A DNA stretch of 48,231 nt from the IMG/VR virus record IMGVR_UViG_3300029305_010146, one strand, 5' to 3'. Below the pieces are notes generated by a model, which saw only the letters and a list, made by a program, of their open reading frames with translations, searched no databases and was not told the origin of the DNA. This stretch comes from an uncultured virus (IMG/VR IMGVR_UViG_3300029305_010146) (lineage: Duplodnaviria; Heunggongvirae; Uroviricota; Caudoviricetes). Each line of letters starts with the position of its first letter. The stretch's first letter is position 1. Position numbers and translations under genes: made by a program. Positions 7,433-45,671 of the stretch are shown here, in pieces.

Positions 7433-7439
7433 TAAAACA

Positions 7440-9487: not shown

Positions 9488-9492
9488 AATAT

Positions 9493-9525
9493 TAAACCCA
9501 AAACGAAAGTTTTGGGTTTATTTTT
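9493..9525 (+). terminator. Rho-independent terminator
   Basis: TAAACCCAAAAC-GAAA-GTTTTGGGTTTA followed by a T run. Confidence 0.85.
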
Positions 9526-9640
9526 CGCTTAACTTGAAAATAATTTTATTGACAAATATAATATTTCATAATAATATTTGGAATGAAGAATACTCTTATT
9601 CCAACAGAGGATTCTTTAATTTATAAAAGGAGATGATATT

Positions 9641-18231: not shown

Positions 18232-18267
18232 AAAATCCCCAATCATTAGATTGGGGATTCTTTTTTT
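18230..18267. terminator. Bidirectional terminator
   Basis: AATCCCCAATC-ATTA-GATTGGGGATT flanked by A and T runs. Confidence 0.8.
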
Positions 18268-20140
18268 ACAGTTTTGCAATTGTAAATTTGCTTTTCACAT
18301 CTCCACAATTGATAAGGAGAGTGTTATAGGGAGATTTCTCGACAACATCTTCCACCATATTGTAATTAGTAACATCAAGAGCATCTGTGTTATCCAAAAC
18401 GATTGTGTCGAAGTTAATTAACTTACAAATCAAAGATTTAAAAGCATAATTTACCACAACTCTTTCGCCAGTGGAAACTTCATTGATGTTGATTTCGCCA
18501 AGAGGTGTAACAATACAAATATCGAGATTTGCTCCATCGAACAAGAACTTAATCTTCCAATCACTCTTAATTTCAAACAAGATTTGATTCAATCCAGTTT
18601 CAATAGGAGTAATGATTTTTTCAAAAATCTTATTAGGAAGAACATTGAGCTCCTGCAGAATGAAAGAATACATTGCTGTAATTTTCTCTGCTTCCTCAAG
18701 ATTTTTCTTATTTTCCTCCAAACGCTTTACTGCATCTGCAATCTTCGAGGCATCGACGATTCTCTGCTTCACAGCAGTCAGTTCATTTCTCTTCTGCTCC
18801 AGAACACTCTTTTTCGCTTTTGTATCGACGATTGTGATTGACTTTGCTTTTGCTTCATTCAATTCAACACTCTTCTCAATGGCGCTGATTTTACCTTCAA
18901 TTGAGGCAAAAGCAGTTCTTTCTCTCTGCATATCGCTTCTCTTTTTAGTAAGTGTAACGACACTTCTTCGAGTTTCGTCTTTGTTCTTGGTGATTTCGGA
19001 AATGTTCTTTTCTATTTCTGCAATTTGGCTTTTCAACTCCGCAATCTTTGCGTCAACCTTCTTGCACTCTTCTCGCAATGCCTCAACTTCCTCATTGAGT
19101 TTATTTTTGGCATCGCTCATATTTGTCGTGCAAGGCAAACCAGCATACAAAGGACAAGTTGTAGTTGTGGAAAGGGTGTTCAAAATTTCCTTTTTACCCT
19201 TACCATTCTCAATTATAACCTGTCTTTGCGTGTTTACATCAGACAAAGAGTTGATTAACTGCAAGTGTGTTTTATTGAGTTCAATTAACTGTCGCTCATA
19301 ATCGGCACACTTCTGTTCTTCTCTTTCGATTTCAGCAATAATTGCTTCAACATCGCTTTCTGTGTACTGACAAACCTTTTGTTTTAACTGTTCGATTTCA
19401 GCACGACTTGTCGCAATATTCTGTTCGATGTCGGAACGAACTTTTGCATCTTTTTCGATAGCGAAGATTTCCCCAACAATTTTTTCAATATCCGTTTCGA
19501 TTGCTGTACTTTGTGCTACCAAAGTTCCAACATCTACAACTGTAACATTTTCATAAGGGGCATCAGTTTCGACCAATACTCGCATACTTTTGATTACACG
19601 ATTGCTTTCGGTTCTCATTGCATAGAATTTCTTATATGCCTTATTGATGGCAGGAATAGTGATAATATCAATATTCTCACCAGCAAAATATCTTTTTACA
19701 CTTGCCAGTGCTTCGTTCTCCAACTGCGTAAAAGAAAGAACCTTGTCAACATCTAATTGCATAGATGCGACTTTAAGCATTGTCTCTCCGTCCAATACAG
19801 TTTCAGTATCAAACAGGGAACAAAGAACATCGGGATTGTAACCAATTTTGTTCAAATGCTCATACATCGCAATTTCAGAACACACTTTCCCGTTCACACG
19901 AATAGTAGTGTTGCCATTTTTCTTTTGACGCGAAATTGTGATGCCAGAGAATTCAATGGTTCCGCTTCCTTCCGTTTCTCCATTTTTCAAAGACAAGCCC
20001 TTTCCCGTCAAAACAAAGTAAGGTGTCTTTGCGATAGTACTTTTGCCCGCACCATTAATGCCACAAAGTACAATTTTGTCATTCACATCAACAGTTTTGG
20101 GACTGCCGATAGAACGAAGATTATTTGCTGTTATTTTCAT
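18266..20140 (-). CDS. Rad50/SbcC-like ABC-type coiled-coil ATPase
   Basis: Walker A GINGAGKST, long coiled coil with central CPLYAGLPC, signature VSTGE, and Walker B/D-loop IVLDNTDALD. Confidence 0.8.
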   Translation of the reverse strand: MKITANNLRSIGSPKTVDVNDKIVLCGINGAGKSTIAKTPYFVLTGKGLSLKNGETEGSGTIEFSGITISRQKKNGNTTIRVNGKVCSEIAMYEHLNKIGYNPDVLCSLFDTETVLDGETMLKVASMQLDVDKVLSFTQLENEALASVKRYFAGENIDIITIPAINKAYKKFYAMRTESNRVIKSMRVLVETDAPYENVTVVDVGTLVAQSTAIETDIEKIVGEIFAIEKDAKVRSDIEQNIATSRAEIEQLKQKVCQYTESDVEAIIAEIEREEQKCADYERQLIELNKTHLQLINSLSDVNTQRQVIIENGKGKKEILNTLSTTTTCPLYAGLPCTTNMSDAKNKLNEEVEALREECKKVDAKIAELKSQIAEIEKNISEITKNKDETRRSVVTLTKKRSDMQRERTAFASIEGKISAIEKSVELNEAKAKSITIVDTKAKKSVLEQKRNELTAVKQRIVDASKIADAVKRLEENKKNLEEAEKITAMYSFILQELNVLPNKIFEKIITPIETGLNQILFEIKSDWKIKFLFDGANLDICIVTPLGEININEVSTGERVVVNYAFKSLICKLINFDTIVLDNTDALDVTNYNMVEDVVEKSPYNTLLINCGDVKSKFTIAKL

Positions 20141-20154: not shown

Positions 20155-20607
20155 TTAACCGAAATCGTAAACAGATATATCTCCTATATCAGTGTCTTCT
20201 TCATAGAGAACATTGTAATGCTCCCTAATCATATCTGCCAACTGTTCCTCGGTTAACTGTTTTTCAAAATCTGACATTTGCCATGGCATACATTTGCACA
20301 TTACCAGATACAGTCTGGAATTTTCATCAGAAAGTGCTTCCATGAAGTCGCATCCATATCTTTCGTTCATGACTTTTGCAATAATGAAAGGAATACCAGT
20401 GTAGTAATCCTGTTCAATTTCAGCAAAATCATCAACAGTTGCTTCTTCGTATTTCACATCCCAATCTTCCAATTGTTCTGTGACTTCTTTCCTAAATTCT
20501 GGTGCGAATTCAAGCAACTTTCGAATCTTATCTGGTGTGGTATTTGTACCACATCGATGGTCAAATTGAATTCCATAACCTCGTGTCTCATAACTCTGCA
20601 TTCCCAT
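20155..20607 (-). CDS. Acidic hypothetical protein, co-transcribed with the SbcC-like gene
   Basis: AGGAGG RBS, 150-aa ORF; no family recognised. Confidence 0.7.
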   Translation of the reverse strand: MGMQSYETRGYGIQFDHRCGTNTTPDKIRKLLEFAPEFRKEVTEQLEDWDVKYEEATVDDFAEIEQDYYTGIPFIIAKVMNERYGCDFMEALSDENSRLYLVMCKCMPWQMSDFEKQLTEEQLADMIREHYNVLYEEDTDIGDISVYDFG

Positions 20608-21793: not shown

Positions 21794-22570
21794 ATGGCAA
21801 GAGAAAATACCATTACTTTAGTAGGTGAGGTCAGTAGTCCTCTCACCATTACTCTCAACAAAGTTCATTCTACATACAGAGTTGCTTTTAATTTAAAAAC
21901 ACTTCGTAGAAATAATAGAACTGATTTTCCAAGAGTAAATGTCTTTGGACTCACAGAAGAACAGGCACGTAAAATGTACGAAGAATTCAAAATTGGCGAA
22001 TTCGTTATGGTTCGTGGCATGGTGTCTACAAAAATGGTCAAAAAAGTTATCAAATGTGAAGGTTGCGGTAAAGAATACGAATCTGATGCTCTCGTAACAG
22101 AAGTTATCGCATACTCTGCTCCAGTTCATCTCAATGGTGAATATGAAGCAAACGACTTGAAAGAGTTTGCAAACAACTTGCATATGATTGGTGCTGTATG
22201 CTCCGAAATTCAGTCAAGACAAAGTCCTTCTGGTGTTTCTATGACACAGTATCAGGTTGCTGTCAACAGAAAATATCATGTTAAAGAAAAGGAAGATAAA
22301 ACTGATTTTCCTTGGGTAAAAACATTTGGTAGACAAGCGGAGGAAGACGAAAAGCATCTTAAAGTTTCCTCACAAATTTACATCAACGGTGCTATCCAAA
22401 CACGCGAGGTTAACAAGAGCATTGTTTGCGACGAATGCGAATCTACTATTAAATATGTAGAAAATCTTGGTGAAATTGTGCCACAGGATGTAGAATATCT
22501 CAATAATTGTGTATTTGATGAAACCGAAAAGAAAGAAAACGACACAGAAATTACTACAGTTAATGAATAA
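21794..22570 (+). CDS. ssb: Single-stranded DNA-binding protein with two tandem OB folds, each carrying a CxxC
   Basis: Repeat 1: NTITLVG...RTDFPRVNVFG...VMVRGMVST...CEGC. Repeat 2: NNLHMIG...VAVNR...KTDFPWVKTFGRQAE...INGAIQTR...CDEC. Confidence 0.85.
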   Translation: MARENTITLVGEVSSPLTITLNKVHSTYRVAFNLKTLRRNNRTDFPRVNVFGLTEEQARKMYEEFKIGEFVMVRGMVSTKMVKKVIKCEGCGKEYESDALVTEVIAYSAPVHLNGEYEANDLKEFANNLHMIGAVCSEIQSRQSPSGVSMTQYQVAVNRKYHVKEKEDKTDFPWVKTFGRQAEEDEKHLKVSSQIYINGAIQTREVNKSIVCDECESTIKYVENLGEIVPQDVEYLNNCVFDETEKKENDTEITTVNE

Positions 22571-22588: not shown

Positions 22589-23392
22589 ATGAGAAGAAAG
22601 AAAAACCAACAGCAAGATGAAGGTTTTTTCATTGAGACTATTGATTTGTCTCCCTCTAATAACATAACACCCCCTCCAAGTAATTCAAATTATGGCAATC
22701 AGCCTACACCTTCTTTCGATGCAGGAATGTCAGAAAGAATTAATGAAAAACGCTTTGCAAAACGAGTTGGCAAAAAAATTAAAAATAATTTGGTTAAAAT
22801 TATTGCTTTTATACTTTGTCTTTACATGGTTTTCTTAATTGTTGGAGCATTAACTACCAACTATTATATTGATTCAGAAACAGGTACAAGACAACCAATT
22901 TTCGTAACCTTTAGCGATGTTGCAAAGAAGAAAGATTATAATGCACTCAAAGACGAGATGGCACAACTTCGCTCTGTTCTTGTAGATGTCCGAATTATTG
23001 AAATTAAGTATAATAATGGCGACATTGATGCAAGTGAAGCGGCATCAAGATATAACAAGCAATTGAGTAGAATCGATGTTATAATTCCAAAACTACAAGC
23101 ATTAAATGTAGGTGACGGCCAAGTGGCAATAAAAGAAGCAATGTTAACTTGTTACAAAAACTATTTAGCAGGTTATTTACAAGAAATGTACAAAGGTTTA
23201 ACCGCAAGCGATGCAACTGCGGTTAATTCTGCACTTAAATATCGTGAATATATGTTAAATAGTTATTTTGATAGCGAAACTTCTCTTGAAAAACTTGGAG
23301 AAAAACTAAAACTCAAAGATGAGTTTTTCGATTGGGAATTAGATAAGGCGGCCGCCGAAAAAGACCCAACAGCAATTTTAAAAAATAAATAA
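22589..23392 (+). CDS. Single-TM protein with helical extracytoplasmic domain
   Basis: One hydrophobic helix after a basic stretch; no family recognised. Confidence 0.7.
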   Translation: MRRKKNQQQDEGFFIETIDLSPSNNITPPPSNSNYGNQPTPSFDAGMSERINEKRFAKRVGKKIKNNLVKIIAFILCLYMVFLIVGALTTNYYIDSETGTRQPIFVTFSDVAKKKDYNALKDEMAQLRSVLVDVRIIEIKYNNGDIDASEAASRYNKQLSRIDVIIPKLQALNVGDGQVAIKEAMLTCYKNYLAGYLQEMYKGLTASDATAVNSALKYREYMLNSYFDSETSLEKLGEKLKLKDEFFDWELDKAAAEKDPTAILKNK

Positions 23393-23406: not shown

Positions 23407-24828
23407 ATGGCAGACGAAATTTCCTTGCGCTCTATGCAACAGTATATACAGCAATTAGAATCCCAATTGAGAATGAAGACAGAGCAAGTCGAAGAGCTCA
23501 ACAAGTATGTCTCTGATGCGTCATCTGCTGTTCAGCAAACGATTAACCAATGCAGAAAATTCTGCACCTCCATTTTGGAAGGCGAATTAGCATCTGGTAG
23601 AATAACACAAAAAGAAATCGAATCTCTCTCACTTACCGACCTTTTGGCTCGTGCAAAATCCGTTTACAATGCTAATCAGCAAAAATCGAGAGAAATTTAT
23701 ACAAAATTTTCTGAAAAAATTGAAGAAAAAAACAGAATGATTGAAGGACTGCAAGCACAGGTTTCACAGTTAATGATTCAACTTAATAGTGCAGACCCAA
23801 CAGCAATTCCAGAAGTGTCTGATGTTGAAAATTTAACGAGTGCACCAGTTTTTCCTATGGGAACATCGTTTGGAAACAAGGACAAAGGCATTAATCCCTC
23901 AAGACAAGCACTTACCGCAGCGAAGATTCTTGGAGACGGGGATGAGTCAGTTGTAAGTTTTTCTGATAAAGTTGCGACTGAAACTAACCTTAACTCAAAC
24001 GGTGTTATCAATAACGAAGCATTCAAAAAAAACTATCACATGATTGATTTAGATAAATTTATGAAAGATATTACTCCTCCAATGTGGTTGGTTATTCAAA
24101 CCATTGGTGAACAAGGAATCAATGAGCAAACTGAAATCAAAGCATTTATTTTGCAAAACCTTGTAGGAACAGACTCTTCTATAAATGACTCTACAATCAA
24201 TATTGCAATTTCTAATTTAATGAGAATGCAAATTCTCAAGAGAATTAAAATTGTATGCGGTAACAGATGGTTTTACATTTTTGAACTTGATGAAATGGGT
24301 GTTCGTGCTTACATTGGCAAATATTCAAAGAAACCAGTTATGAGCGAAGCACAAAAACTCATTAAGGAACACGACAACATCAAGCATGGTTATCTTATCA
24401 AAGAAGCATCTATGATTATGAAGAGTAAGTTTGATTACGAAAGTGTTTCTACATCAAGAAAAGTTAATTATATTAGATTGCCCAATGGAAAAGCCTGTAT
24501 TCCCGATATTACTTGTGCAAAACGAGGTCAAGTTGATTATTACGAAGTCGAATGTGGCAACCACAACCAAGAAGACTTCAATGATAAGTGCAACAAATAC
24601 AGAATGGTAACAAAAACAATCCACTTTGTTGTTCCGCAAAACGAAGTTCTCAAAACATTGCAATCTCAAATTACTGCTTGGATTAAATCCTGCGGTGGTC
24701 ATGCAGTGCTACAAAAAGGTGAAATGGTAGTTAAAGTAACTACCATGAAAAAATTACTTGAAAATAAGTGGGAACTCGTATATGATATGAGTAGCGATGA
24801 ACCAACAACATCGCAAAATCTTGTTTAA
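23407..24828 (+). CDS. Coiled-coil plus wHTH plus PD-(D/E)xK nuclease-fold protein, Replic_Relax-like (candidate relaxase/initiator)
   Basis: N-terminal heptad repeats; wHTH-like INIAISNLMRMQILKR...FELDEMG; IKHGY; IPDI...YYEVECG...DKCNKY, matching the H...PD...ExD/E.G...K..KY pattern. Confidence 0.55.
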   Translation: MADEISLRSMQQYIQQLESQLRMKTEQVEELNKYVSDASSAVQQTINQCRKFCTSILEGELASGRITQKEIESLSLTDLLARAKSVYNANQQKSREIYTKFSEKIEEKNRMIEGLQAQVSQLMIQLNSADPTAIPEVSDVENLTSAPVFPMGTSFGNKDKGINPSRQALTAAKILGDGDESVVSFSDKVATETNLNSNGVINNEAFKKNYHMIDLDKFMKDITPPMWLVIQTIGEQGINEQTEIKAFILQNLVGTDSSINDSTINIAISNLMRMQILKRIKIVCGNRWFYIFELDEMGVRAYIGKYSKKPVMSEAQKLIKEHDNIKHGYLIKEASMIMKSKFDYESVSTSRKVNYIRLPNGKACIPDITCAKRGQVDYYEVECGNHNQEDFNDKCNKYRMVTKTIHFVVPQNEVLKTLQSQITAWIKSCGGHAVLQKGEMVVKVTTMKKLLENKWELVYDMSSDEPTTSQNLV

Positions 24829-25050: not shown

Positions 25051-25113
25051 TGCATTTCGTCGGAGTCGATGCTAATATTATGTCACAGCGACAAATTAAC
25101 GTTTAAAAAGATG

Positions 25114-25147
25114 AAATGCAAAACAGTTTTTCTGTTTTGCATTTTTT
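25114..25147 (+). terminator. Rho-independent terminator
   Basis: AAATGCAAAACAG-TTTTT-CTGTTTTGCATTT followed by a T run. Confidence 0.8.
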
Positions 25148-25148
25148 C

Positions 25149-25177
25149 TTGATTTATCTTAAAAAATTGATTATACT
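25149..25177 (+). promoter_or_regulatory. sigma-A promoter for the membrane protein and Ser-rich ATPase operon
   Basis: TTGATT-17 nt-TATACT. Confidence 0.6.
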
Positions 25178-25213: not shown

Positions 25214-25771
25214 ATGTTTGGAAAAGATAAATATGTTCCAAAAAGTTCAAACGAGATTGTCTACCACAGTAAAGTCTCCTCACAAGATATTTGGCCAAAA
25301 GTTTTTGCTTGTGTTGTCTATATCGTGTCATTCCTGCTTTGGATGTATTTAGATAAAGCATATTATAATTTCGGAAGTAACATAATTACTCCTCTCACAG
25401 CGGCAATGTATGTTGTAGGTGCTGTGTTTGCAATTCTCTTGCCAAGTCAGAAAAAGGAAACGGTTAATCACACAAAATGGTTCGTAATCGGATATTTAGC
25501 AATAATGTTCGTTTATAAATTTGTAATTGCTGCCGTCGGCGGTGTTTCTTCCGATAGTTTAGCGGCCGCTTTCAATCAAGCACTTCCAACCACAACAGGA
25601 ACTGCTATTTCTGGTTGGTTACAAAATTTACTTTGGATTATCGCAATCACTTATCCAATCACTTTCTTTACGTTCCAAGCAAAGAAAATTCCACAATTTA
25701 TCAAGACTAGAAGTAAAGCACAAGCAATTAGACAAATTAGAGATATACGCGATAATACTAAACCTTATTAA
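25214..25771 (+). CDS. Four-TM integral membrane protein, co-transcribed with the Ser-rich ATPase
   Basis: Four hydrophobic helices and a basic C-terminal tail. Confidence 0.75.
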   Translation: MFGKDKYVPKSSNEIVYHSKVSSQDIWPKVFACVVYIVSFLLWMYLDKAYYNFGSNIITPLTAAMYVVGAVFAILLPSQKKETVNHTKWFVIGYLAIMFVYKFVIAAVGGVSSDSLAAAFNQALPTTTGTAISGWLQNLLWIIAITYPITFFTFQAKKIPQFIKTRSKAQAIRQIRDIRDNTKPY

Positions 25772-25794: not shown

Positions 25795-28700
25795 ATGTTG
25801 GATTTAGCAAGAATTTTAAGCAAATCAAAGCCTGGTTATGACGACGATTTAAAAATCCTCCGCAACTGGGCAGAATATTCAGATGACCGTGCAAACATGA
25901 ATTATCTGATGTACGAACTTGAGATGGAAGATGCTTCTGGAAAAGTAACTCATTTCTATAAGGCGATTAAACTCTTACGTATCATCAGATTGCCTAAATC
26001 TGCAAAACAGTCAAAATCCTTTATGGATATGCATGCGCAGGTTCTTGCAGCAATCTGGGAAAGAAATATTAAATTTATCACTGTTATAGCAAACATGCTT
26101 AATCCTGTTCCACTTGGACTTATGTATCTTTACGGTGTTCAAGGTGTTGCTGAAACAGAAGAGCAGGCAAAATTCATCGCTGATAACGATTACATTGCTC
26201 TTACAGCAGTCCTTCAAGGAACATACAGAGTTCTTGAATACAAGGTCATTTCTTACCAAGAATTAGAATGGTTAAGAGAAAAAATGTTTTCTATGAGAAA
26301 CATGACTGTTGTTAGAGGTATTCCAAAAGCAAAAGCTGGCGGTGTTGACGGTGGCGACAAAGGCATGGGTGCTGCTAACGTTAACCCTGAAAGTCAGGAC
26401 ACTACCGAAGAATTTATCGCAGGTATGAGTGATAAGGAATATGTTGTTCAAATTCTTTCGACCCCAGTTAAAGCAGAACATCTTGAAAGATGGCTTGCTC
26501 AAACTGCACAAGAGATGACAAGATGGAACAAACAACTTCAGGGAACAACTTCGTTCAATGCTGGTATTTCTTTACCTATGATGTATATGGCTAACCTCGG
26601 TGCATCCGAAGGCTGGAGTCACTCTTACACAGAAAGTGAATCTCTATCTACATCTGCAACTGATAGTGTTTCCACATCTTTCTCCACGTCGGTTGGTGAA
26701 AGTATTAGCCAATCTTTCGGCGAAAGTGTTGGTCATAGTTTTGGCGAATCTTTTTCCGAATCCACTGGCGAATCTTATAACACGTCTATCGGTACTTCTG
26801 AAGGAACAAGTTGGGGCGAAAGTATTGGTACAAGTCAAGGAACTTCACAGAATTTCTCTGAAAATGCTTCTTTTGGCAATTCTTATACAGAGTCCACAAA
26901 CGAATCAACAAGTCATACGGACTCCACAAACTCTTCGCTTTCAGAAGGAACGAGCACAAATACAAGTACTTCCCATTCAGAATCAACTTCTGTGTCTGAT
27001 GGAACAGGTACATCACAATCTACATCCAATACAACCACTAATAGTTCTTCACAAGGTTGGAGTTCGACAACTGGCGGTTCCACATCGCAATCGCATTCGA
27101 CAACCGAAACTGATACGACTGGCACTAACTCTTCTACAAGTCATGGCACAAGCGATACTCGTGGCACAACCCATACCACAAGTAGCTCTTCGACCGTTAC
27201 TGATACAACAGGCGGTAGTTCGAGTACTTCTGAAACAGATGGTTGGTCTAGAACACGTGGTAGCAGTAGTAATGAGGGTGTTTCGATTATTTACTCCAAT
27301 AGTGGAGGTAGCAACAGTGGTTCTACCGAAAGTGGTTCGACAACAACAACAGAAGGTACAAGTTGGAGTACCAGTAATGCTTCCACAAGAGGTACTTCTG
27401 ATGCAACAAGCAACAGTCATACAACAAGTAATACCACCACAACTGGTACATCTCAAAGTCATAGTACTGGTGTAAGTAACGGTACAACCAACACACAAAG
27501 TTGGAGTAACGGAACAAGTGGTTCTACAAGTGTAAGTCATAGCACAGGAACAACGGTTGGCACTAGCACAAACCACACTGAAACACGCGGTTATTCTGAT
27601 ACCGTATCTCAAGGTTATGGTACTTCTACCACAGTAAGCAATGGTGTTGGGGCAAGTGACTCTACATCGCAAGGCAGCGGTGAAAGTTGGGGACAAACAT
27701 CCTCTTATAGTCAAGGAACATCTGTTGGTATGAACCAAAATGCTTCGCACTCTGCTAATGTTGGCGGTAATTCTGGTGTTAGCACAAGTGATAGTTGGGG
27801 ACTTTCAAGCAGTCGTTCTTATGGTCAAACATCAACTGACTCTTATACTCAAAGCGCTACTTCAAGTGCTGGCAGAAACTATTCCGAAAGTAACGGTGTT
27901 GGTCAATCACAAAGTTGGGGAACAAGCAATGGTCAATCCATTGGCCAGTCCCTTGGTACAACTGGTGCTATTTCTTCTGGTACAAGTTCCAGCATGGGTC
28001 TCGGTCCATCCATTAGTTATGGTAAGTCCTATCAGTGGTTAGACCAAGAAGTTAAGAATATCTTAACTTTATTAGAATTCCAAAACCTCCGTCTTATGAA
28101 AGCACTCATGGGTAATGGTGCATTCTTTACGGATGTATATATTGCTACTCCTAACAAGGAAACACAAGCGGCTGCATCTATTCTCGCAAAATCCGCTTGG
28201 CAAAACGAAGAGGCCATGATTTGTCCATTACAAGTTTTAGACCTCAAGAAGGAAGAACAAGAGCATTTACTCTATCACTTCTCTGCATTTAGTGCAGATA
28301 ATACAAAAGAGGGCATCCCAGGCAGAATGGAATCCTACAGATATTCCACAATTTTGTTACCTGGCGAATTCACAGCATTTACACACATGCCTCGTATTTC
28401 TGAAGGTGGCGTCTTTGCTGATGTCAACGATATGCCTAAATTTGCAGTTCCATCTATGAAGAAGGGTGATATCTATATGGGTAAAATCCTCTCTGGTGAA
28501 AGATGGACACCTAACGATGGTTATGAAACTAAATTTGACTATCGTCTCGATGAAGGCGAATTGATGCACGGTATCTTCACTGGTGAGTCCCGCTCTGGTA
28601 AGACCGTTGCTGCAACTCGTTTCGTAGCAGAACTCACAAAGGTTAGAAGAAAGAAAACTGGTAAGAGATTGAGAATCGTTGCTCTTGACCCAAAACAAGA

Positions 28701-29808
28701 CTGGCGTATTCTTGGCAAATTCGTCGAACCAGAGAGATTCCACTTCTATTCTCTTGGCAACCCAGAGTTCTTGCCAATTAACCTTAATATTTGTAAAGTT
28801 CCTCACAATGTTAACCCACAGACTTGGGTTGACGGCATTATTGAAATCTATTGTCGTTCCTATGGTCTTCTTGAACGTGGTAAAGCAATTCTTGCTGAAA
28901 CATTCTATTCGCTCTATAGTGAAGCAGGTGTTTTCGAAGACTCGCCTAACTGGAGAGACTTCGTTCCAGAACGTTCGAGTAAAGTTACAATGTGCAAGAT
29001 TTACGAAAGAATGATGAAGATTAAAGTTGACCTCGAAGACCCAACCGTTTCTGGCAAAGGTCGTATGGGTAATGAAGCACGCGATGCTTATACTCGTGTT
29101 CTTGACCGTATGCAGGTATTTGGTCGTAAGTTCTCCATCGAGTCTCGTCTCTTTGGTCAAGAAGACGGCATTGCCGTTGACGAACTTATCGGTGGCGACG
29201 ACATCATCGTTCTCGAATCCTATGGTCTTGAAACAACCTTTAAGAACTTTATCTTCGGTTGTGTAACAAGTGGTTTCTTCAAATATGCACAAGGCCACGA
29301 AGGTGGTTTCCTTGCTGCCGACCAGTACGAAACTGTCTTGATTATCGAGGAAGCAAACGAAGTTCTTACTGGTTCTGATACCGCTGGTTCTGGTGGTGGC
29401 AATATGCCATCTCTCGGTGGTCAGTCCGAGTTCGAAAAGATTCTCGACCAGTCTGCTGGTCTTGGTCTATTTATCATCGCTATCACACAGAAGATTGCCG
29501 ATATGCCAAGTTCCTGTGTTGCTAACTCTGGTCTTATCTTCGCTGGTAAGATTTCGAGAGCAGACGACGTTACATTGGTTATCCGTAAAATCGGTCGTGA
29601 AGAGAGATACGATGACCGTGACATCTTAAAATGGTTTCCTCGTTCTCCAATTGGTTGGTTCGTATGTCGTTCTTCCAGAAACTTCGACTTCAAAGATACA
29701 GAACCTGTATTGGTACACATCGACCCACTCGGTGTCAACCCACCTTCCAACAAAGAACTCGAAACTATCATTGCAGAAAGAAAAGCAATGGAACTCTTAT
29801 ACACATAA
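25795..29808 (+). CDS. HerA/VirB4/FtsK-superfamily pumping ATPase with a ~500-aa Ser/Thr/Gly-rich insert
   Basis: HGIFTGESRSGKT (Walker A), VALDPKQDW, LIIEEANEVL (Walker B), IIAITQKIAD, ANSG. No signal peptide or helical TM segment. Confidence 0.85.
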   Translation: MLDLARILSKSKPGYDDDLKILRNWAEYSDDRANMNYLMYELEMEDASGKVTHFYKAIKLLRIIRLPKSAKQSKSFMDMHAQVLAAIWERNIKFITVIANMLNPVPLGLMYLYGVQGVAETEEQAKFIADNDYIALTAVLQGTYRVLEYKVISYQELEWLREKMFSMRNMTVVRGIPKAKAGGVDGGDKGMGAANVNPESQDTTEEFIAGMSDKEYVVQILSTPVKAEHLERWLAQTAQEMTRWNKQLQGTTSFNAGISLPMMYMANLGASEGWSHSYTESESLSTSATDSVSTSFSTSVGESISQSFGESVGHSFGESFSESTGESYNTSIGTSEGTSWGESIGTSQGTSQNFSENASFGNSYTESTNESTSHTDSTNSSLSEGTSTNTSTSHSESTSVSDGTGTSQSTSNTTTNSSSQGWSSTTGGSTSQSHSTTETDTTGTNSSTSHGTSDTRGTTHTTSSSSTVTDTTGGSSSTSETDGWSRTRGSSSNEGVSIIYSNSGGSNSGSTESGSTTTTEGTSWSTSNASTRGTSDATSNSHTTSNTTTTGTSQSHSTGVSNGTTNTQSWSNGTSGSTSVSHSTGTTVGTSTNHTETRGYSDTVSQGYGTSTTVSNGVGASDSTSQGSGESWGQTSSYSQGTSVGMNQNASHSANVGGNSGVSTSDSWGLSSSRSYGQTSTDSYTQSATSSAGRNYSESNGVGQSQSWGTSNGQSIGQSLGTTGAISSGTSSSMGLGPSISYGKSYQWLDQEVKNILTLLEFQNLRLMKALMGNGAFFTDVYIATPNKETQAAASILAKSAWQNEEAMICPLQVLDLKKEEQEHLLYHFSAFSADNTKEGIPGRMESYRYSTILLPGEFTAFTHMPRISEGGVFADVNDMPKFAVPSMKKGDIYMGKILSGERWTPNDGYETKFDYRLDEGELMHGIFTGESRSGKTVAATRFVAELTKVRRKKTGKRLRIVALDPKQDWRILGKFVEPERFHFYSLGNPEFLPINLNICKVPHNVNPQTWVDGIIEIYCRSYGLLERGKAILAETFYSLYSEAGVFEDSPNWRDFVPERSSKVTMCKIYERMMKIKVDLEDPTVSGKGRMGNEARDAYTRVLDRMQVFGRKFSIESRLFGQEDGIAVDELIGGDDIIVLESYGLETTFKNFIFGCVTSGFFKYAQGHEGGFLAADQYETVLIIEEANEVLTGSDTAGSGGGNMPSLGGQSEFEKILDQSAGLGLFIIAITQKIADMPSSCVANSGLIFAGKISRADDVTLVIRKIGREERYDDRDILKWFPRSPIGWFVCRSSRNFDFKDTEPVLVHIDPLGVNPPSNKELETIIAERKAMELLYT
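26542..28035 (+). repeat. Period-2 low-complexity S/T/G/N-x coding repeat (aa ~250-747 of the ATPase)
   Basis: Small residues at odd positions and bulky residues at even positions over ~470 aa; no exact DNA tandem repeat seen. Confidence 0.85.
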
Positions 29809-29822: not shown

Positions 29823-29857
29823 AATGGTGCATCTTTTTTGATGCACCATTCTTTTTC
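29823..29857 (+). terminator. Rho-independent terminator
   Basis: AATGGTGCATC-TTTTTT-GATGCACCATT followed by a T run. Confidence 0.8.
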
Positions 29858-29985: not shown

Positions 29986-31530
29986 ATGGCAAATGGAATT
30001 TATTTTATCGAACCAAATTCCAGCATCATTTCGGATTTTGAAAGTTATTTTTTAATTAATGATAATGTAAAATTTATTGGCGGCAGTCCTTCGTTCCAAC
30101 AAGCGATTAATGTAATCAAAACAACGCCAGATATCAGATATCTCGTAATTAATGAGCAAGCACTCGATGCAGATTGCTTGACCATACTCGCTCAATTAGG
30201 TGGAACAAGTGCTATCAAAATTGTCACTCTTGAGAGCAATAATGAAGTTCTTAAGAATAGACTTTCCCAAATGGGCGTTATTACGATTAATAAACCTTAC
30301 ACTTATTCCGATTTGGAAACTATTTTTAATGGAGGTATGAATATGAATACCTTCAACGAAACAAATAATTTTGTAGGAAATCCAAACGACAACCCTTTTA
30401 TGGCAAATCGTCCAGGTACTACACCTGTTGCGAGTCCAAGTGCTCGCCCAGATATTCAGGAGCGCTTACGCAACATTCGTAGAAAGCCACCTGAAAATAA
30501 AAATAAAATTATCAAGCAAAAAGTAGTTGCTATCCACAACCAAAAAGGTGGTGTTGGTAAATCTACCGTTGCCAAGGAATTAGCAACCGCACTTCGTTGC
30601 ATGAAGATTCAAGCAAATGGCGAAGAATACAAACCAAAGGTTTGTTTATGCGATTTCGATTTAGACTCTTCCGATATCGTATCTCTCCTCAATCTTCCTA
30701 CATTCCCCAATATTTCCCTTTGGGTTGATGACATGGAAGAAGAAGCACGCCGTACTGGACAGTCTATTGAAAATGTTCGTTTTACCGAAAGAGACATCAA
30801 AGACAACTATTTGCTCAAGGATGTAAATGGTAGTGGTATCTTCGTTCTTGCTGCACCAGAAGATAAAACGGAAAGTACAAGAATTCACATGGAACACATT
30901 GAAGGCATCATTGAAAACTTAAAGCTTTGTGATTTCGATATTATTATCCTTGATACTGGTCCAAACATTTTTGACTATACCATTATGTCTTTAATGAAGT
31001 CCGATATTATTTTGGCAATTTCCACTTGCGAAGTTGCTTCTGCAAAACGTTTAGATGGTGTTATTGCTGATATTCTTTCTAGAATGCCAGAATACAATCC
31101 AGAAAAAGTTAAGCTCGTTATCAACAAGTACAACCCGAACACTAATATTTCTCCTCAAGAACTTATCGATGTACTTAATCTCGAACTTTATGGTGTCATT
31201 CCTAACTATCCAGAGATTTCCAACATGAATAACTCTGGTTATTCCGCTTTTTATAACAAAGCAAGAAACAAGGAAGAGAGCGGTGCATATATCGCAAGTA
31301 TAATTGAGATTGCGAAAAAAGTTTCAGGAATCGACAAACTTCAACAAAGAAATAACTCTGCTATGCAGGGAGGCCCACAGCAACAAGTCCCTGCTCAACA
31401 ACAGCAAATGCCCCCTCAACAGCAGCAGTTCAATCCTCAACAGCAGCAGTTTGTACCTCCTACACCACCCGCACAGCAGAAACCAAAGAAGAAAGGTTTC
31501 TTCTCAAATTTCTTCGGTGGTAAAAAATAA
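29986..31530 (+). CDS. CpaE/TadZ-like MinD/ParA ATPase with pseudo-receiver domain and C-terminal membrane-targeting helix
   Basis: Receiver-like N-terminus ending NKPY; deviant Walker A KGGVGKST; CDFD; IILDTGP; VINK; Gln/Pro linker; KKKGFFSNFFGGKK. Confidence 0.85.
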   Translation: MANGIYFIEPNSSIISDFESYFLINDNVKFIGGSPSFQQAINVIKTTPDIRYLVINEQALDADCLTILAQLGGTSAIKIVTLESNNEVLKNRLSQMGVITINKPYTYSDLETIFNGGMNMNTFNETNNFVGNPNDNPFMANRPGTTPVASPSARPDIQERLRNIRRKPPENKNKIIKQKVVAIHNQKGGVGKSTVAKELATALRCMKIQANGEEYKPKVCLCDFDLDSSDIVSLLNLPTFPNISLWVDDMEEEARRTGQSIENVRFTERDIKDNYLLKDVNGSGIFVLAAPEDKTESTRIHMEHIEGIIENLKLCDFDIIILDTGPNIFDYTIMSLMKSDIILAISTCEVASAKRLDGVIADILSRMPEYNPEKVKLVINKYNPNTNISPQELIDVLNLELYGVIPNYPEISNMNNSGYSAFYNKARNKEESGAYIASIIEIAKKVSGIDKLQQRNNSAMQGGPQQQVPAQQQQMPPQQQQFNPQQQQFVPPTPPAQQKPKKKGFFSNFFGGKK

Positions 31531-31550: not shown

Positions 31551-32993
31551 ATGGATTTACACGATAAAATCAAAAGAAGCAATAATTTGGAAAATTCTTC
31601 TTATGCTCCATTTAGACAAAATGGTGCAGATAGAGGCAATTACACCAAATCCTCATATAGACAGAGAAATCCGAATCGTCAAGCACCTCGTTCTGTGCAA
31701 TATCAACCAGAAGCAGAAGAAGTGTTTAATCCCAACATCCCATTTAATGATGTTCAGGAACAAGGTATGCCTGTCGTAAATAATTTTGAAGTAAATAATA
31801 TGGCAATGCCGTCCGTATCAATGCCATCTGCGCCAATGCAACAGCAACCAGCACAGCAGGAATTTAACGGAAATGATTTTTTCAATACTGTTCCTCATCA
31901 AGGAACTCCTAATTTTAACGACACTGTACCAGCAACGCCTGTGTTACCGAATTTTTCGACACCAGTAACACCAGTAATACCAACTGCAACTGTGCCTATC
32001 GCAGAGAGTGCACCTGCTGAAACACCTCTTAAAAACCCTGCTGACGATTACAGTAATTTTGCTATTCCCAATGTCAGCACAGAAAAGATTTTGCAAGAAG
32101 ATATGGATAAAGTAGAAAAAACATTCTACAATGCATTGGTCTCGCTTTTCGACAGATATGAAATCGATAAGGTACTAATTGTTGAAAATAAGATTTATAC
32201 AGTAAACTTCACTGGTGATGAAGATGCCGAAATCTTCGAAGAGGCACTTGATGAAGAATTATTAAGTAAATTTTCAAAGTATTTTGTCGCAGACGGGTAT
32301 TTTGAAGCATTACTTGTAAACGGTTGTAAACTGGAGATGACCTATAGACCAGTTTCCGAACTTCCAACAATTATTGTGTCAAAACCACATTCCGACTTTT
32401 TTGTAGATGAAGAATTTATTTCTATTCTTTTTGAATTTCTATCAAAAGGAAAGAATGTAGTTATGTTATCCAATTTCGCAATTGATACAATGTATAAGAT
32501 TATTTCCGATTTTTTCAATAACAATCTATGTATTACTATCAACGAACCAATAAAAACAGAAAACAATGTTGCTTTTAGAGAGAATCCTCTTAAACCCTCT
32601 CTTAAAACTGTTTACTCTATGTCTAAAAAAATTGAACCAGACAATACACTTGTGTATTCTCCAACAGATTTGTTATCAACCATTTCTTATATGAAGAAAA
32701 ACAATAGTGTTGTTTTGTTCTCCGAAACAGACACACCTTCCGATTTTATTAATGCTGATGTAATTCATGCATTGGGCGGACAAAGCGAATATAATCGCAT
32801 TAGTATTTTGAAAGCAGTAGATATAATTTTCACTGTTGTCCCTACTAAAAATGGCACAATCAAATATACCGCTACACAGTTGCTTTCGCCAACCAACAAA
32901 TCGCATGTTAATAAAATCAAAAAGATTATTGGAGATGCAGAGATTGATTTAAATAAAATTTACTTCAACAATGTTTTCGAAAAAGAAATCTAA
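31551..32993 (+). CDS. Degenerate CpaF/TadA (VirB11-family) pseudo-ATPase with disordered N-terminus
   Basis: FEALLVNGCKLEMTYRPVSELPTIIVSK, GKNVVMLS, SKKIEPDNTLV and KAVDIIFTV follow the CpaF motif order, but Walker A and Walker B residues are absent. Confidence 0.55.
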   Translation: MDLHDKIKRSNNLENSSYAPFRQNGADRGNYTKSSYRQRNPNRQAPRSVQYQPEAEEVFNPNIPFNDVQEQGMPVVNNFEVNNMAMPSVSMPSAPMQQQPAQQEFNGNDFFNTVPHQGTPNFNDTVPATPVLPNFSTPVTPVIPTATVPIAESAPAETPLKNPADDYSNFAIPNVSTEKILQEDMDKVEKTFYNALVSLFDRYEIDKVLIVENKIYTVNFTGDEDAEIFEEALDEELLSKFSKYFVADGYFEALLVNGCKLEMTYRPVSELPTIIVSKPHSDFFVDEEFISILFEFLSKGKNVVMLSNFAIDTMYKIISDFFNNNLCITINEPIKTENNVAFRENPLKPSLKTVYSMSKKIEPDNTLVYSPTDLLSTISYMKKNNSVVLFSETDTPSDFINADVIHALGGQSEYNRISILKAVDIIFTVVPTKNGTIKYTATQLLSPTNKSHVNKIKKIIGDAEIDLNKIYFNNVFEKEI

Positions 32994-33104: not shown

Positions 33105-35195
33105 ATGATTACTATTTTTGCAGAAAAACCAGACATGGCGCGACGAATCGCCAGTGCTATGTCTACAAGAATAACAAAACAACAACACCATATCGATGTC
33201 GAATATAATGGTGAAAAATATTGTGTAACTTGGGGTTATGGTCACCTTTGTGAATTATGTGAAGTGAAAGACTATACACCAGATTACAAATGGAACACAA
33301 CTAATTACCCTTTTTATCCCGATGAATTTAAATTAAAATTAAAGGCAGGTATAAACCCACAGCAAACAAAGACTAACAAGGAACATTTTGCTGAATTAAA
33401 GAAAATGTTTAATTCTTCCGATTATATTATTAATGCAACTGACGCCGACAGAGAAGGCGAGTTAATCTTTGCTTATGTATATGAATATATGAAATGCAAA
33501 ACACCTTGGAAGCGTTTGTGGTTGAATTCTACTGAAAATACAGCAATTCGTACTGCCTTATCAAAATTAAAGGACAGTAGAGAAATGTTGCCTCTGCAAA
33601 ATGCGGGCAGATGCCGTTCCGAAGCAGATTGGTTGATTGGTATCAATGCTACCGTACTTTCAACTTTGAGTTTTGGTGGATTTGGAAATATGATGAATGT
33701 TGGTCGTGTGCAAACACCAACTCTTGCTTTTTTAGTAAACAGAGAAAATGAAATTCGCAGTTTTATTTCGAAACCGTTTTGGACGGTAAAAGGTATTTTC
33801 GAAACCTTTAATAATGAAAAATACGAAGGTTCTCTAAAAAAACCAGAACGTTTTGACAGCAAAGAAGAAGCAGAACAATTTATCAGCAAACTCGATAAAA
33901 GTACTTCTTTTGTTGCAAAATGCGAAAAAGTGCCAGACCGCAAAAAACCCCCTCTTTTATTTGACCTTAATGCTTTGCAAATGCAGGCAAACTCTGACTT
34001 TGGTTTTTCGGCACAAAAAACTCTCGATATTGCACAAAAACTTTACGAAATGCAATATATCACATATCCTAGAACAACATCTAAATACTTACCAGAAGAC
34101 CTCAAAAATGAAGTTTATGGAGTTTTAGATAGCTTTGAGGGGGACTATGGAAAATGGGCATCAAAAATTAAGAGTAGAAGACAAACTGTATCAAAACCTT
34201 ATTTCGACAATTCCAAGGTTGAAAGTCACTATGCAATTATCCCAACTTCAAAGGTTCCCTCTGGGTTATCTTCCGATGAAGAAAAACTTTATGACATTAT
34301 TGCAAAAAGTTTGATTAGAATTTTTTATCCCGATGCAATTTTTAACAAAACAATAATAGAGACAGATGTGTCACATGAAATTTTTGTATCAAAAGGTTCT
34401 TCTTTACAAGAATTGGGTTGGATGGAAGTAGGATACAAAACAAAAGAAGATACAATTCTTCCAAATGTTTCTACAAACGAAAAGGTCAAAACATTGGAAA
34501 TTTCGATGACAGAAGGAAAAACTGAACCACCAAAAAGATATACAGACAAAACATTATTAAGCACTATGGAAACCGCTGGTAAATTTGTTGATTCGGAAGA
34601 ATTAAGACTTATGATGAAAGACTCTGGTCTCGGAACTCCCGCAACTCGTGCTGGTATTATAGAAAAATTAATCCGCTCTGGTTATGTTGAAAGAGATAAA
34701 AAAACACTTATTCCAACAGAAAAAGGAATTTTCTTAATTAAAAATCTCCCTTGCGAAGAATTAAAATCGCCAGAAATGACGGGTGCTTGGGAAAAAAGAA
34801 TCAATGATGTTGAAAAAGGAAAAGATAGTTTTGAATCTTTTATTACAGACATTAAAAAGCAAACGGATAAAATTTGCATCTCCATTACCGATAACAAAGT
34901 AAGTGACGAAGAGAAATTTACAACAAAAGACAATTCTTCGTTGGGAACTTGCCCACTTTGCGGTGGTGATGTCATAAAGAAATCATGGGGTTATGGTTGT
35001 GCCAATTATAATACAACAAAATGTTCGTTCTCAATTAGTAGTTCGATTTGTGGCAAGCGAATGACTGATACAATCGTCAAAAAATTGCTCTCTACTGGTT
35101 CTACTGGTAAAATTAGCGGTTTTAAATCAAAAGCAGGAAAATCTTTTTCCGCAACCATCAAACTTATTGATGGAAAAACTGAATTTGAATTTTAA
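33105..35195 (+). CDS. topB: DNA topoisomerase III (type IA) with C-terminal zinc ribbon and repeat
   Basis: AEKP, TWGYGHL, ATDADREGE, GRVQTPTL, ITYPRT (catalytic Tyr), HYAIIPT, GLGTPATRA, CPLC and GFKSKAGKSF. Confidence 0.93.
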   Translation: MITIFAEKPDMARRIASAMSTRITKQQHHIDVEYNGEKYCVTWGYGHLCELCEVKDYTPDYKWNTTNYPFYPDEFKLKLKAGINPQQTKTNKEHFAELKKMFNSSDYIINATDADREGELIFAYVYEYMKCKTPWKRLWLNSTENTAIRTALSKLKDSREMLPLQNAGRCRSEADWLIGINATVLSTLSFGGFGNMMNVGRVQTPTLAFLVNRENEIRSFISKPFWTVKGIFETFNNEKYEGSLKKPERFDSKEEAEQFISKLDKSTSFVAKCEKVPDRKKPPLLFDLNALQMQANSDFGFSAQKTLDIAQKLYEMQYITYPRTTSKYLPEDLKNEVYGVLDSFEGDYGKWASKIKSRRQTVSKPYFDNSKVESHYAIIPTSKVPSGLSSDEEKLYDIIAKSLIRIFYPDAIFNKTIIETDVSHEIFVSKGSSLQELGWMEVGYKTKEDTILPNVSTNEKVKTLEISMTEGKTEPPKRYTDKTLLSTMETAGKFVDSEELRLMMKDSGLGTPATRAGIIEKLIRSGYVERDKKTLIPTEKGIFLIKNLPCEELKSPEMTGAWEKRINDVEKGKDSFESFITDIKKQTDKICISITDNKVSDEEKFTTKDNSSLGTCPLCGGDVIKKSWGYGCANYNTTKCSFSISSSICGKRMTDTIVKKLLSTGSTGKISGFKSKAGKSFSATIKLIDGKTEFEF

Positions 35196-35210
35196 TTTCA
35201 AGAAAACCTA

Positions 35211-35239
35211 TTGACAAAGTTAAAAATATATGTTATAAT
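35211..35239 (+). promoter_or_regulatory. Consensus extended sigma-A promoter
   Basis: TTGACA-17 nt-TATAAT with TG. Confidence 0.8.
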
Positions 35240-35284
35240 AAAGTAAAAAAGAAAGTATATTTTATTATAGGAGGCGAAAAATCA

Positions 35285-35464
35285 ATGAAAAGTGCTTTAT
35301 TCTTTATTCTATTTTTTGTAAATGCACTATGCGGTTTTTATTTTAGAAACCCTATCGCATTTGGTTTTTCCATTTTAGCATTAGCAGTCTCCATCCTTTT
35401 TGCAAGCAGAACTCGTGTTGAAGAAGAGGACAGAGAAGAGGAAGAATTAGAAACTGAAAAATAA
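35285..35464 (+). CDS. 59-aa two-TM microprotein with acidic tail (absent from the ORF track)
   Basis: AGGAGG RBS and own promoter; translation MKSALFFILFFVNALCGFYFRNPIAFGFSILALAVSILFASRTRVEEEDREEEELETEK. Confidence 0.75.
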   Translation: MKSALFFILFFVNALCGFYFRNPIAFGFSILALAVSILFASRTRVEEEDREEEELETEK

Positions 35465-35496
35465 TACAATAAAGTCAATTTATATCACTCATGCAA

Positions 35497-35527
35497 AGAG
35501 CGGAGTGTCTCTTTGACACTCCGCTCT
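35497..35527. terminator. Strong stem-loop without T tail
   Basis: AGAGCGGAGTGTC-TCTTT-GACACTCCGCTCT. Confidence 0.55.
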
Positions 35528-35580
35528 AATAATAGACTTTTTAATAACTTTCTTTTATAAAAACAAAGGAGTTGTTATTT

Positions 35581-35898
35581 ATGGCAGAAATCATTACAAA
35601 ATGCCCCTGTTGTGGTGGCGACATTGTAGAATCCGATAAAGCATTCGGATGTGCTAATTGGAACAATAAAGAAAAGCCTTGTGACTTTACTATATGGAAA
35701 ACAATTAGTAAGAAAAAAATCAAAAAAGAACAAGCTATTGATATTTGCACAAAAGGCAGAAGTTTGCTAATCGAGGGTTTTACGAGTAAAGCTGGAAAAC
35801 CTTTTTCCGCTTTCCTTGTCATTACTGATGACGAAACTAAAAAATGTGGAAAACGAATTTCATTTGAATTCCCCGAAAGAAAAACGGAGGGCGAATAA
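35581..35898 (+). CDS. Stand-alone topoisomerase IA C-terminal zinc-ribbon/repeat protein
   Basis: CPCCGGDIV...FGCANW...CDFTIWK...GFTSKAGKPFSAFL...FEF; parallels the last ~85 aa of the neighbouring TopB. Confidence 0.8.
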   Translation: MAEIITKCPCCGGDIVESDKAFGCANWNNKEKPCDFTIWKTISKKKIKKEQAIDICTKGRSLLIEGFTSKAGKPFSAFLVITDDETKKCGKRISFEFPERKTEGE

Positions 35899-41124: not shown

Positions 41125-41148
41125 GAGGAAAATTCAGGAGGAGAAATT

Positions 41149-45559: not shown

Positions 45560-45567
45560 CATTTTTC

Positions 45568-45593
45568 AAGGTGGTCTATCAAGACCACCTTTT
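45568..45593 (+). terminator. Rho-independent terminator
   Basis: AAGGTGGTCT-ATCA-AGACCACCTT followed by T residues. Confidence 0.75.
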
Positions 45594-45594
45594 C

Positions 45595-45623
45595 TTGATA
45601 TTTTACCCTCTATAAATTATAAT
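45595..45623 (+). promoter_or_regulatory. sigma-A promoter of dnaE
   Basis: TTGATA-17 nt-TATAAT. Confidence 0.7.
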
Positions 45624-45671
45624 TTGCACGTAAGCATTATACTTAAGTTTCAAAGAAGGAGGAATATATTT

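Follow-up and report, generated by a model that had tools for sequence, protein, structure and literature searches.

The DNA analysed here, called the window in what follows, is the whole 48,231-nucleotide (nt) stretch of the IMG/VR virus record IMGVR_UViG_3300029305_010146, an uncultured virus placed in the Caudoviricetes. An open reading frame (ORF) of 1337 amino acids (aa) at 25795-29808 on the plus strand encodes a predicted P-loop ATPase that carries a Ser/Thr-rich insert between its N-terminal domain and its ATPase part; positions 26554-28032 correspond to aa 254-746 of this protein. The gene directly upstream encodes a small membrane protein with four predicted transmembrane segments (the four-TM protein). 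The original prediction had placed two hydrophobic zones, a basal belt and a distal tip, on a hairpin formed by the insert, and had suggested that the belt is a β-barrel segment in the donor membrane, that the tip contacts a second membrane, and that the four-TM protein is the insertion or anchoring partner. The features of the two genes are as follows.

25113-25145 (+): terminator-like hairpin before the two-gene unit, a 14-pair stem and then a T run.
25149-25177 (+): promoter-like site TTGATT-17-TATACT before the four-TM gene, scoring 9/12 in a consensus scan and a consensus match only.
25214-25771 (+): four-TM protein, 185 aa, with a basic C-terminal tail (hydropathy; 15-homologue alignment; upstream in most loci).
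25795-26553 (+): N-terminal domain of the ATPase protein, aa 1-253 (equivalent part modelled with high confidence, above 90, in homologue P0155).
26554-26598 (+): N-arm basal hydrophobic belt, aa 254-268, core 254-264, with Pro261 (homologue conservation).
26599-27279 (+): predicted hairpin N arm, aa 269-495, with a strict two-residue period (phase, arm-length and charge-pair tests).
27280-27294 (+): hydrophobic tip V-S-I-I-Y, aa 496-500, at the insert midpoint (sequence and homologue profile).
27295-27993 (+): predicted hairpin C arm, aa 501-733 (phase, arm-length and charge-pair tests).
27994-28038 (+): C-arm basal belt, aa 734-748, core 734-742, with Pro738 and K744 (homologue conservation).
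28039-28434 (+): middle domain between hairpin and ATPase core, aa 749-880 (modelled with high confidence in P0155).
28435-29808 (+): predicted HerA/VirB4/DndH-class P-loop ATPase domain (structural matches, Walker motifs).
28582-28605 (+): Walker A motif GESRSGKT, aa 930-937.
29335-29361 (+): Walker B motif hhhhEEA, aa 1181-1189.
29823-29850 (+): terminator-like hairpin after the ATPase gene, an 11-pair stem and then a T run.

The ATPase protein was assigned to NCBIfam NF033849 'serine-rich protein' (ser_rich_anae_1; 1440.4 bits, E 0, cut-off 650), and gave neither a direct Pfam match at E ≤0.01 nor a PHROGs match. The NF033849 name, also given to copies on plasmids of Ruminococcus albus 7 and Alkaliphilus sp. 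B6464, reflects composition only, and a literature search with subscription journals outside its coverage found no function, structure or paper for it. A serine-rich repeat/MSCRAMM adhesin was considered and rejected: the ClfA model scored 23 bits against a cut-off of 1150, no signal is present, and the C-terminus is an ATPase. The claim that the protein has no Sec/Tat signal or transmembrane helix was borne out, as the 19-residue Kyte-Doolittle mean reached a maximum of 1.49, below 1.6 everywhere, and the N-terminus lacked a signal-like segment.

A search of 1.84 billion representative proteins returned 402 relatives. The comparisons below used 82 full-length homologues, including 14 from genome loci, which were anchored on two conserved belt motifs and whose inserts are 192-874 aa long, with a median of 459. 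The family is common in gut and rumen Clostridia and present in some Bacilli; cultured carriers include R. albus 7, Anaerostipes hominis BG01 and Neobacillus paridis, and distant relatives occur on metagenome loci of 29-74% G+C. No relatives were found in phage records or IMG/VR contigs, and no near-identical plasmid was found.

The insert is built on a two-residue period. From aa 269 to aa 733, 232 of the 233 odd positions hold S, G, T, N or A, the sole exception being I499 at the tip, and the even positions hold 52 of the 53 hydrophobic residues, in an overall composition of 30% S, 21% T and 14% G. No tandem repeat was found in the DNA that would explain this period, just two weak 12-nt rows. 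The small face is retained across the homologues, with a median small-residue fraction of 0.98. When the two anchor positions add up to an odd number, both arms can share a face only if the small-residue phase flips once, and it did so in 49/49 homologues, at most 8 residues from the midpoint in 45 and at most 26 in all 49. The lengths of the N and C arms are correlated with r=0.99 over inserts of 192-874 aa. Residues of opposite charge also pair across the arms: at i+j equal to the anchor sum (n0+c0), 256 opposite pairs were counted vs 109 like pairs, summed over the 82 proteins, and at offset -2 the counts were 247 vs 151, with the remaining even offsets at 125-223 opposite vs 176-270 like. 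The observed excess of +147 compares with a mean of -46.6 (standard deviation 18.9, maximum 8) in 300 permutations of the C arm within phase class, giving z ~10. The protein of the window shows its own peak at i+j=996, with 9 opposite pairs vs 1 like pair. Hydrophobic pairing across the arms gave no clear register, the best count of 10 at i+j=1000 being equalled in 194 of 2000 shuffles.

Indels in the arms were predominantly even in length (269 even vs 36 odd), the reverse of those outside the insert (6 even vs 27 odd); this count is not independent evidence, because aligners favour even gaps in a period-2 sequence. Net changes in the two arms of close homologues were correlated with only r=0.33 overall, in alignments that are ambiguous in low-complexity sequence, and a few striking mirrored pairs were seen, such as +16 and +16 in homologue P0114. 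Modelling with AlphaFold2 was performed on the 1048-aa homologue P0155 (32% identical overall, 36% in the ATPase part) from an 80-sequence alignment and gave a mean predicted local distance difference test (pLDDT) score of 80.4; short strands at 277-283 and 416-422 were placed, at low confidence, roughly in the charge-pair register. In combination, the phase, arm-length and charge-pair results make it very probable that the 489-residue insert between the N-terminal domain and the ATPase part is an in-register antiparallel β-hairpin. One of its faces carries only the small residues S/G/T/N/A, and the other carries cross-arm salt-bridge pairs and scattered hydrophobic residues, which along the proximal arms recur at every fourth residue of this variable face.

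The ends of the hairpin differ in composition from its arms. All 19 residues named in the original prediction were found at the positions given for them, and the belt and tip are conserved hydrophobic features of the family. In the N belt, offsets 0, 2, 4, 6, 8 and 10 are hydrophobic in 0.89-0.98 of the 82 homologues (A counted at offset 2), Pro stands at +7 in 80/82, and K/R at offset -2 in 52/82. In the C belt the hydrophobic fraction is 0.89-0.99 at offsets -8, -6, -2 and 0, Pro stands at -4 in 73/82, and K/R at offset +2 in 55/82. The conservation of the belt (positions 89-99% hydrophobic) is thus consistent with the original proposal, and the alternating pattern held for 254-264; the two outermost residues that had been included, A266 and L268, show weaker conservation and lie opposite S/T on the other arm. 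The arms were correctly said to face each other, with F254 opposite Y742 and M262 opposite M734 in the register i+j=996. The two belt prolines do not lie nearly opposite each other, as had been proposed: P261 faces G735 and P738 faces I258, which puts them 3 residues out of register.

The fully hydrophobic stretch at the base covers about 11 residues of the N strand and 9 of the C strand, each with its conserved proline and with K/R on the domain side, and is roughly the length of a membrane-spanning β-strand. Hydrophobic residues make up 0.13-0.18 of the arms, 0.29-0.63 of the 12 residues nearest the base and 0.32-0.42 of the residues within 4 of the midpoint, and the charged fraction is 0.03-0.04 in the belt vs 0.07-0.12 in the arms. 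As had been claimed for V496-Y500, the tip is a hydrophobic zone: it lies at the insert midpoint, and a hydrophobic rise is conserved there across the homologues. In 66/82 the 7-mer of highest hydrophobicity close to the midpoint lies above the 95th percentile for the protein's own arms, adjacent hydrophobic pairs are ten times denser at the tip, and typical tip sequences are G-G-I-F-V-I-N-G, G-I-P-G and V-S-I-I-Y. The belt strands of the P0155 model (250-262 and 439-451) had pLDDT ~60; because the neighbouring domains lie above 90, the belt would not appear to be packed in the core of the monomer.

Both parts flanking the insert were modelled with pLDDT >90 in P0155. The C-terminal part matched DndH-C (7es4) with Z 32, the VirB4 C-terminal domain (4ag5) with Z 30 (root mean square deviation (rmsd) 3.1 over 350 aligned residues), HerA (4d2i) with Z 27.7 and TrwB (1e9s) with Z 24.2; HerA-type structural matches begin near P0155 residue 583 and leave the middle domain outside. 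In sequence, the family profile was closest in the PDB to HerA/DUF87 chains of defence complexes (E 1e-20 to 1e-17), homologue P0148 reached 39.4 bits with DUF87 (PF01935) vs a cut-off of 23.2, and several other homologues were also above the cut-off. Across 80 homologues, Walker A never varies at its G and K, and Walker B hardly ever at its EE. Judged from the modelled fold together with these motifs, the C-terminal part is a P-loop ATPase of the HerA/VirB4/DndH class (FtsK-HerA superfamily). As a side observation, homologue P0239 carries a LAGLIDADG homing-endonuclease-type insertion at aa 1274-1329, and an intein is suggested in this protein because the insertion lies inside the ATPase part.

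The N-terminal domain was less informative. Full-length TrwK, a VirB4 protein, aligned over 609 residues with Z 20.4 at an rmsd of 15 Å. Folded alone, the N domain gave a poor AlphaFold2 model (mean pLDDT 55.3), which had no Foldseek match at E ≤0.001 and a best hit at noise level, Z 6.4, in a wide fold search. VirB4/CagE/TrbE models were found neither in Pfam/NCBIfam scans of the window protein nor in Pfam scans of 38 homologues, and because the N-domain matches lie within noise, membership in VirB4 is not established. Separately, the P0155 model matched two proteins in BFVD, Gp156 of Bacillus phage G (825 aa) and a protein of Bacillus phage JL (913 aa), over ~1070-1100 alignment columns with TM-scores of 0.30-0.46. 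Since the alignments cover that many columns, these proteins match both flanking parts, and at only 825 and 913 aa they cannot hold a long insert.

The four-TM protein has three segments with a 19-residue Kyte-Doolittle mean of at least 1.83 and a weaker fourth. No family was found for it by Pfam or source names, and its best matches in a protein atlas (0.89) were unnamed clusters. The 23 nt between its gene and the start of the ATPase gene contain AAAGGAG, a ribosome-binding site; the two genes fit one unit because of this site and the terminator-like structures that bracket them. Related genome loci were found with a 17-sequence alignment, the 80-sequence alignment being too divergent for that search. 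Of the 24 loci, 17 have DNA upstream of the ATPase gene, and 16 of these 17 encode a four-TM homologue there, at most 165 nt away in 15 cases. In a distant subgroup (~25-30% identity), 62 of 68 metagenome loci have at least 700 nt upstream; a member of the four-TM family was found upstream in 47 of the 62 and within 300 nt in 31, counts that come from an iterated membrane-protein profile, which can drift. The gene pairing put forward in the original prediction is thus conserved across genomes, and gene order points to the four-TM gene as a conserved upstream partner in a two-gene unit, over deep divergence. Neither of the two refuting conditions that sequence comparison could address, loss of the belt and loss of the membrane-protein neighbour, counted against the original proposal. 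No natural fusion of the two proteins was found among the 82 homologues.

Seven RNA contigs of 196-385 nt, 95-99% alike to the region, came from two gut metatranscriptome runs of one study. They cover the upstream intergenic DNA, the four-TM gene and the ATPase gene, but no contig runs across the junction, and DNA carry-over is possible, so that they favour neither the presence nor the absence of co-transcription of the two genes.

Other features of the window are listed below.

912-13237 (+): type IVa pilus cluster with PilM-like, PilB, PilT and PilC proteins (family scans).
44368-48122 (+) and 16514-17464 (-): own replication genes, namely a DnaQ-like exonuclease, a DnaE-like polymerase (PHP + Pol III alpha) and a DnaG-type primase.
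18266-20140 (-): SMC-like ATPase (PADLOC Lamassu LmuB models, best E 3.2e-11).
21794-22570 (+): double-OB SSB, a protein that binds single-stranded DNA (Pfam SSB E 3.3e-20).
22589-23392 (+): single-TM protein, one TM segment.
23407-24828 (+): 473-aa protein with a coiled-coil N-terminal half, a conserved neighbour.
29986-31530 (+): ParA/MinD/CpaE-like ATPase, a conserved downstream neighbour (family scans, locus comparison).
31551-32993 (+): 480-aa ORF where relatives have a CpaF/PilT-type ATPase.
33105-35898 (+): topoisomerase with a Toprim_Crpt C-terminal repeat, then a separate 108-aa ORF with the same repeat.
39490-43410 (+): pair of an AAA_5 (MoxR-like) ATPase and a von Willebrand A protein.

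The recurring gene order is SSB, single-TM protein, 473-aa protein, four-TM protein, ATPase and ParA/CpaE-like ATPase, with the order of the first three kept in 12 to 14 of the 24 loci. In L007, L008, L016 and the R. albus plasmid, the gene immediately upstream of SSB is that of the polymerase. In ten loci (L007, L008, L010, L012, L013, L015, L019, L020, L024 and L025), a gene for a single-TM protein of 224-286 aa separates the ATPase gene from the ParA-like gene; the window lacks this intervening gene, which most relatives keep, and its ParA-like gene follows 178 nt after the ATPase gene. On the R. albus 7 plasmid, primase and DnaE genes precede the block and a complete Tad-like set follows it, comprising a CpaF-type ATPase, two TadB/C-type proteins and an A24 peptidase. 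The 480-aa ORF at the corresponding place in the window gave a non-significant 20% match to the CpaF/PilT-type ATPase over 295 columns, has no P-loop at the aligned place, and may be a degenerate ATPase. Two prepilin-type proteins of the pilus cluster are very large: the first, of 662 aa, has BspA-type leucine-rich repeats, and the second is 1198 aa long. The 473-aa neighbour gave a weak lead (score 0.77) to a cluster with Replic_Relax in 24% of its members and could be a DNA-processing protein of the element. No clear LmuA partner for the SMC-like ATPase was found in the adjacent 150-aa ORF (20155-20607). By gene content, the surroundings of the two-gene unit are a plasmid-type module with SSB, a ParA/CpaE-like ATPase, a type IV filament and replication genes.

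The nearest known arrangement is the VirB4/VirB3 pair of type IV secretion systems (T4SS), as in TrwK/TrwM of R388 and the VirB4 of Thermoanaerobacter. According to a 2025 review, virB3 genes adjoin virB4 and the N-terminal domains of VirB4 embed in the membrane (PMC12857230). The likeness lies in the C-terminal ATPase fold, in the small polytopic membrane protein encoded immediately upstream and in the mobile-element setting of DNA transfer. The partner differs, with four TM segments and 185 aa here and two segments and 10-15 kDa in the VirB3 type, and so does the ATPase, which has no VirB4 family model match and no recognised VirB6, VirB8, VirD4 or relaxase nearby. To our knowledge, no VirB4 has such a hairpin. 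The best structural and sequence matches are to HerA/DUF87 and the C-terminal ATPase domain of DndH (DptH); in the HerA/DUF87 class, ring-forming DNA translocases are the rule. Those proteins have neither a hairpin insert of 200-870 aa nor a four-TM partner, and their N-terminal domains differ.

For the insert itself the nearest structural analogy is the stem hairpin of β-barrel pore-formers (anthrax PA/iota Ib/CdtB, α-haemolysin). In these, each subunit contributes one long, two-stranded, Ser/Thr-rich hairpin with two-residue alternation and a hydrophobic patch at the turn, and the oligomer forms a long tube that is embedded in lipid over just a short part of its length. Weak matches to Ib and CdtB (E 0.006-0.04) came from the insert columns of the family profile; these matches are probably compositional, from low-complexity columns. 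Pore-forming toxins differ in being secreted and inserting from outside into a target membrane, with hairpins of tens rather than hundreds of residues, whereas the present protein bears its long hydrophobic zone at the base instead of the tip and has no signal peptide.

Taken as a whole, our best explanation, which is held only tentatively, is a membrane-docked ATPase ring with an outward stalk collared by the belt. The ring would dock on the cytoplasmic face of the membrane via the four-TM protein, as VirB4 does with VirB3, and the hairpins of neighbouring subunits would join side by side into one long β stalk, most simply, for a hexamer, a 12-stranded tube with the small face inside. The belt would form the collar of the stalk in a non-aqueous setting, provided by the lipid bilayer and/or a ring of four-TM proteins, and the stalk would run outward from the cytoplasm and across the wall, its greasy tip forming the leading or contacting end, in a machine serving transfer of the element's DNA. 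At 3.3 Å per residue and an assumed tilt of 37°, the stalk would be about 61-77 nm long here and 22-141 nm across the family, which is the scale of Gram-positive envelopes. A 12-stranded barrel has a C-alpha radius near 1.2 nm; a lining of small residues would hold a lumen this narrow open, which would explain the strict small face. The parts of this explanation are not equally firm. Physical coupling of the ATPase to the four-TM protein is likely, an oligomeric stalk is an evenly balanced call, a belt in or at the membrane falls somewhat short of that, and outward projection of the stalk is doubtful. The tip may contact a second membrane. In its fullest form the proposal becomes a self-made β-barrel conjugation conduit, its collar held in the donor membrane by a four-TM ring, its serine-lined lumen running for 20-110 nm through the Gram-positive wall, its tip engaging the recipient and single-stranded DNA being pumped inside; we consider this improbable.

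Several points weigh against a membrane-collared outward stalk. We know of no housekeeping precedent for a stable β-barrel in the bacterial cytoplasmic membrane, nor of any export route for a signal-less, hydrophilic loop of 490 residues with both ends in the cytoplasm. The insert outside the belts had pLDDT 21-34, which leaves the stalk or barrel without a model, and a simple soluble tube would expose the hydrophobic residues at every fourth position of the variable face. The tip patch, at 4-8 residues, is much too short to span a bilayer. Threading tip-first is hampered by non-ribbon segments of 130-214 aa inserted at the tip in some homologues: P0185 (aa 418-632) and P0174 (aa 439-571) carry segments of 214 and 132 aa near the hairpin midpoint that look like domains at the tip and for which no Pfam family and no shorter homologue was found. 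It is likewise hampered by the strongly charged insert of a distant subgroup (P0204, aa 235-824, with P0209, P0232, P0247 and P0264), whose abundant residues are R, E, T and D instead of S/G and which has a would-be small face that is 41% small, with the belts and a hydrophobic midpoint, G-I-R-I-F-G-M, retained. Two Met residues (M263, M265) lie on the inward side of the belt, where they suit burial in protein no less than a water-filled pore. The poor N-domain model matched TrwK at Z 4.9, rank 17, within noise. Pfam/NCBIfam scans recognised no VirB6, VirB8, VirD4, relaxase or wall hydrolase among the window ORFs, where divergent forms are possible. Finally, one locus with 1.4 kb of upstream DNA (L021) has no four-TM gene.

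Some of these points would be accommodated by a hairpin that stays in the cytoplasm, with the belt as a protein-protein collar and the tip as a turn-folding nucleus or docking knob, a reading that is itself doubtful and nearly as likely as outward projection. The collar might then lie between subunits, on the N-terminal and middle domains or on cytoplasmic parts of the four-TM protein, and the rod might serve as spacer, tether or scaffold, reaching for instance to the plasmid DNA on which the ParA-like ATPase and SSB act. The missing export signal agrees with a cytoplasmic location, as do residues 262-265, which are hydrophobic on both faces as in a protein core, the tolerance of tip-inserted domains and charged inserts, the cross-arm salt bridges on the variable face, which suit a water-exposed surface, and the conserved ParA-like and DNA-handling neighbours. 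However, the belt, at pLDDT ~60 beside domains above 90, appears unburied in the monomer, and an obligate polytopic membrane partner in a type IV filament context indicates work at the envelope. Moreover, a cytoplasmic role for rods of 22-141 nm that vary fourfold in length among relatives is not known to us. The strict S/G/T/N/A face is also what tight sheet-on-sheet packing requires, and it could belong to a solid rod in which hairpins pack small face on small face, pairwise or bundled, as a polar zipper or silk-like two-layer ribbon serving as anchor, ruler or puncturing needle. Pairing of VirB4 protomers via their N-terminal domains, as reported (PMC12857230), is in line with this arrangement, which we regard as unlikely, which none of the present data set apart from a tube, and which still needs a membrane or protein collar, because both outer faces expose the belt at the base.

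Two further readings set the hairpin geometry or the envelope aside, and both are very improbable. The low pLDDT of the insert (21-34 in AlphaFold2), its low-complexity composition and a PP2C phosphatase gene nearby, recurring in the closest loci, would be in keeping with an unstructured Ser/Thr-rich spacer, either an entropic bristle or a substrate for phosphorylation or glycosylation, whose hydrophobic zones are merely the edges of the flanking domains. Yet such a spacer would not keep a two-residue phase over hundreds of residues, nor would it show 269 even vs 36 odd arm indels, equal arms, a hydrophobic patch at the exact midpoint or register-specific charge pairing. The other reading, in which the protein is the ATPase of a HerA-based anti-phage defence and the hairpin a part of its sensor or effector, draws on the closest PDB sequence matches, HerA proteins of defence complexes at E 1e-20 to 1e-17, and on the LmuB-like gene 6 kb upstream. 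PADLOC, however, matched neither the ATPase nor the four-TM protein; of the remaining neighbours scanned, just the 473-aa protein had a match, a weak one to SspH (E 0.0012, 14.5 bits). No SIR2, DUF4297 or nuclease partner is present, and the genes conserved nearby are those for SSB, a ParA-like protein and a type IV filament.

How DNA passes the thick peptidoglycan in Gram-positive conjugation is called unresolved in the 2025 review (PMC12857230). If the stalk of the membrane-docked ATPase crosses the envelope, it would be a concrete answer to how conjugating DNA passes the Gram-positive wall, and the conduit, if true, would be a new conjugation route unrelated to pili and to the known T4SS wall complexes of Gram-positive bacteria. 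A β-barrel stalk made by a cytoplasmic ATPase would, if true, be the first example known to us. The family joins a motor of the DNA-translocase class, a β structure on the scale of the envelope and a dedicated membrane protein, and even if the hairpin is intracellular, a conserved two-stranded ribbon of 200-870 residues with a strict small face is a structural oddity.

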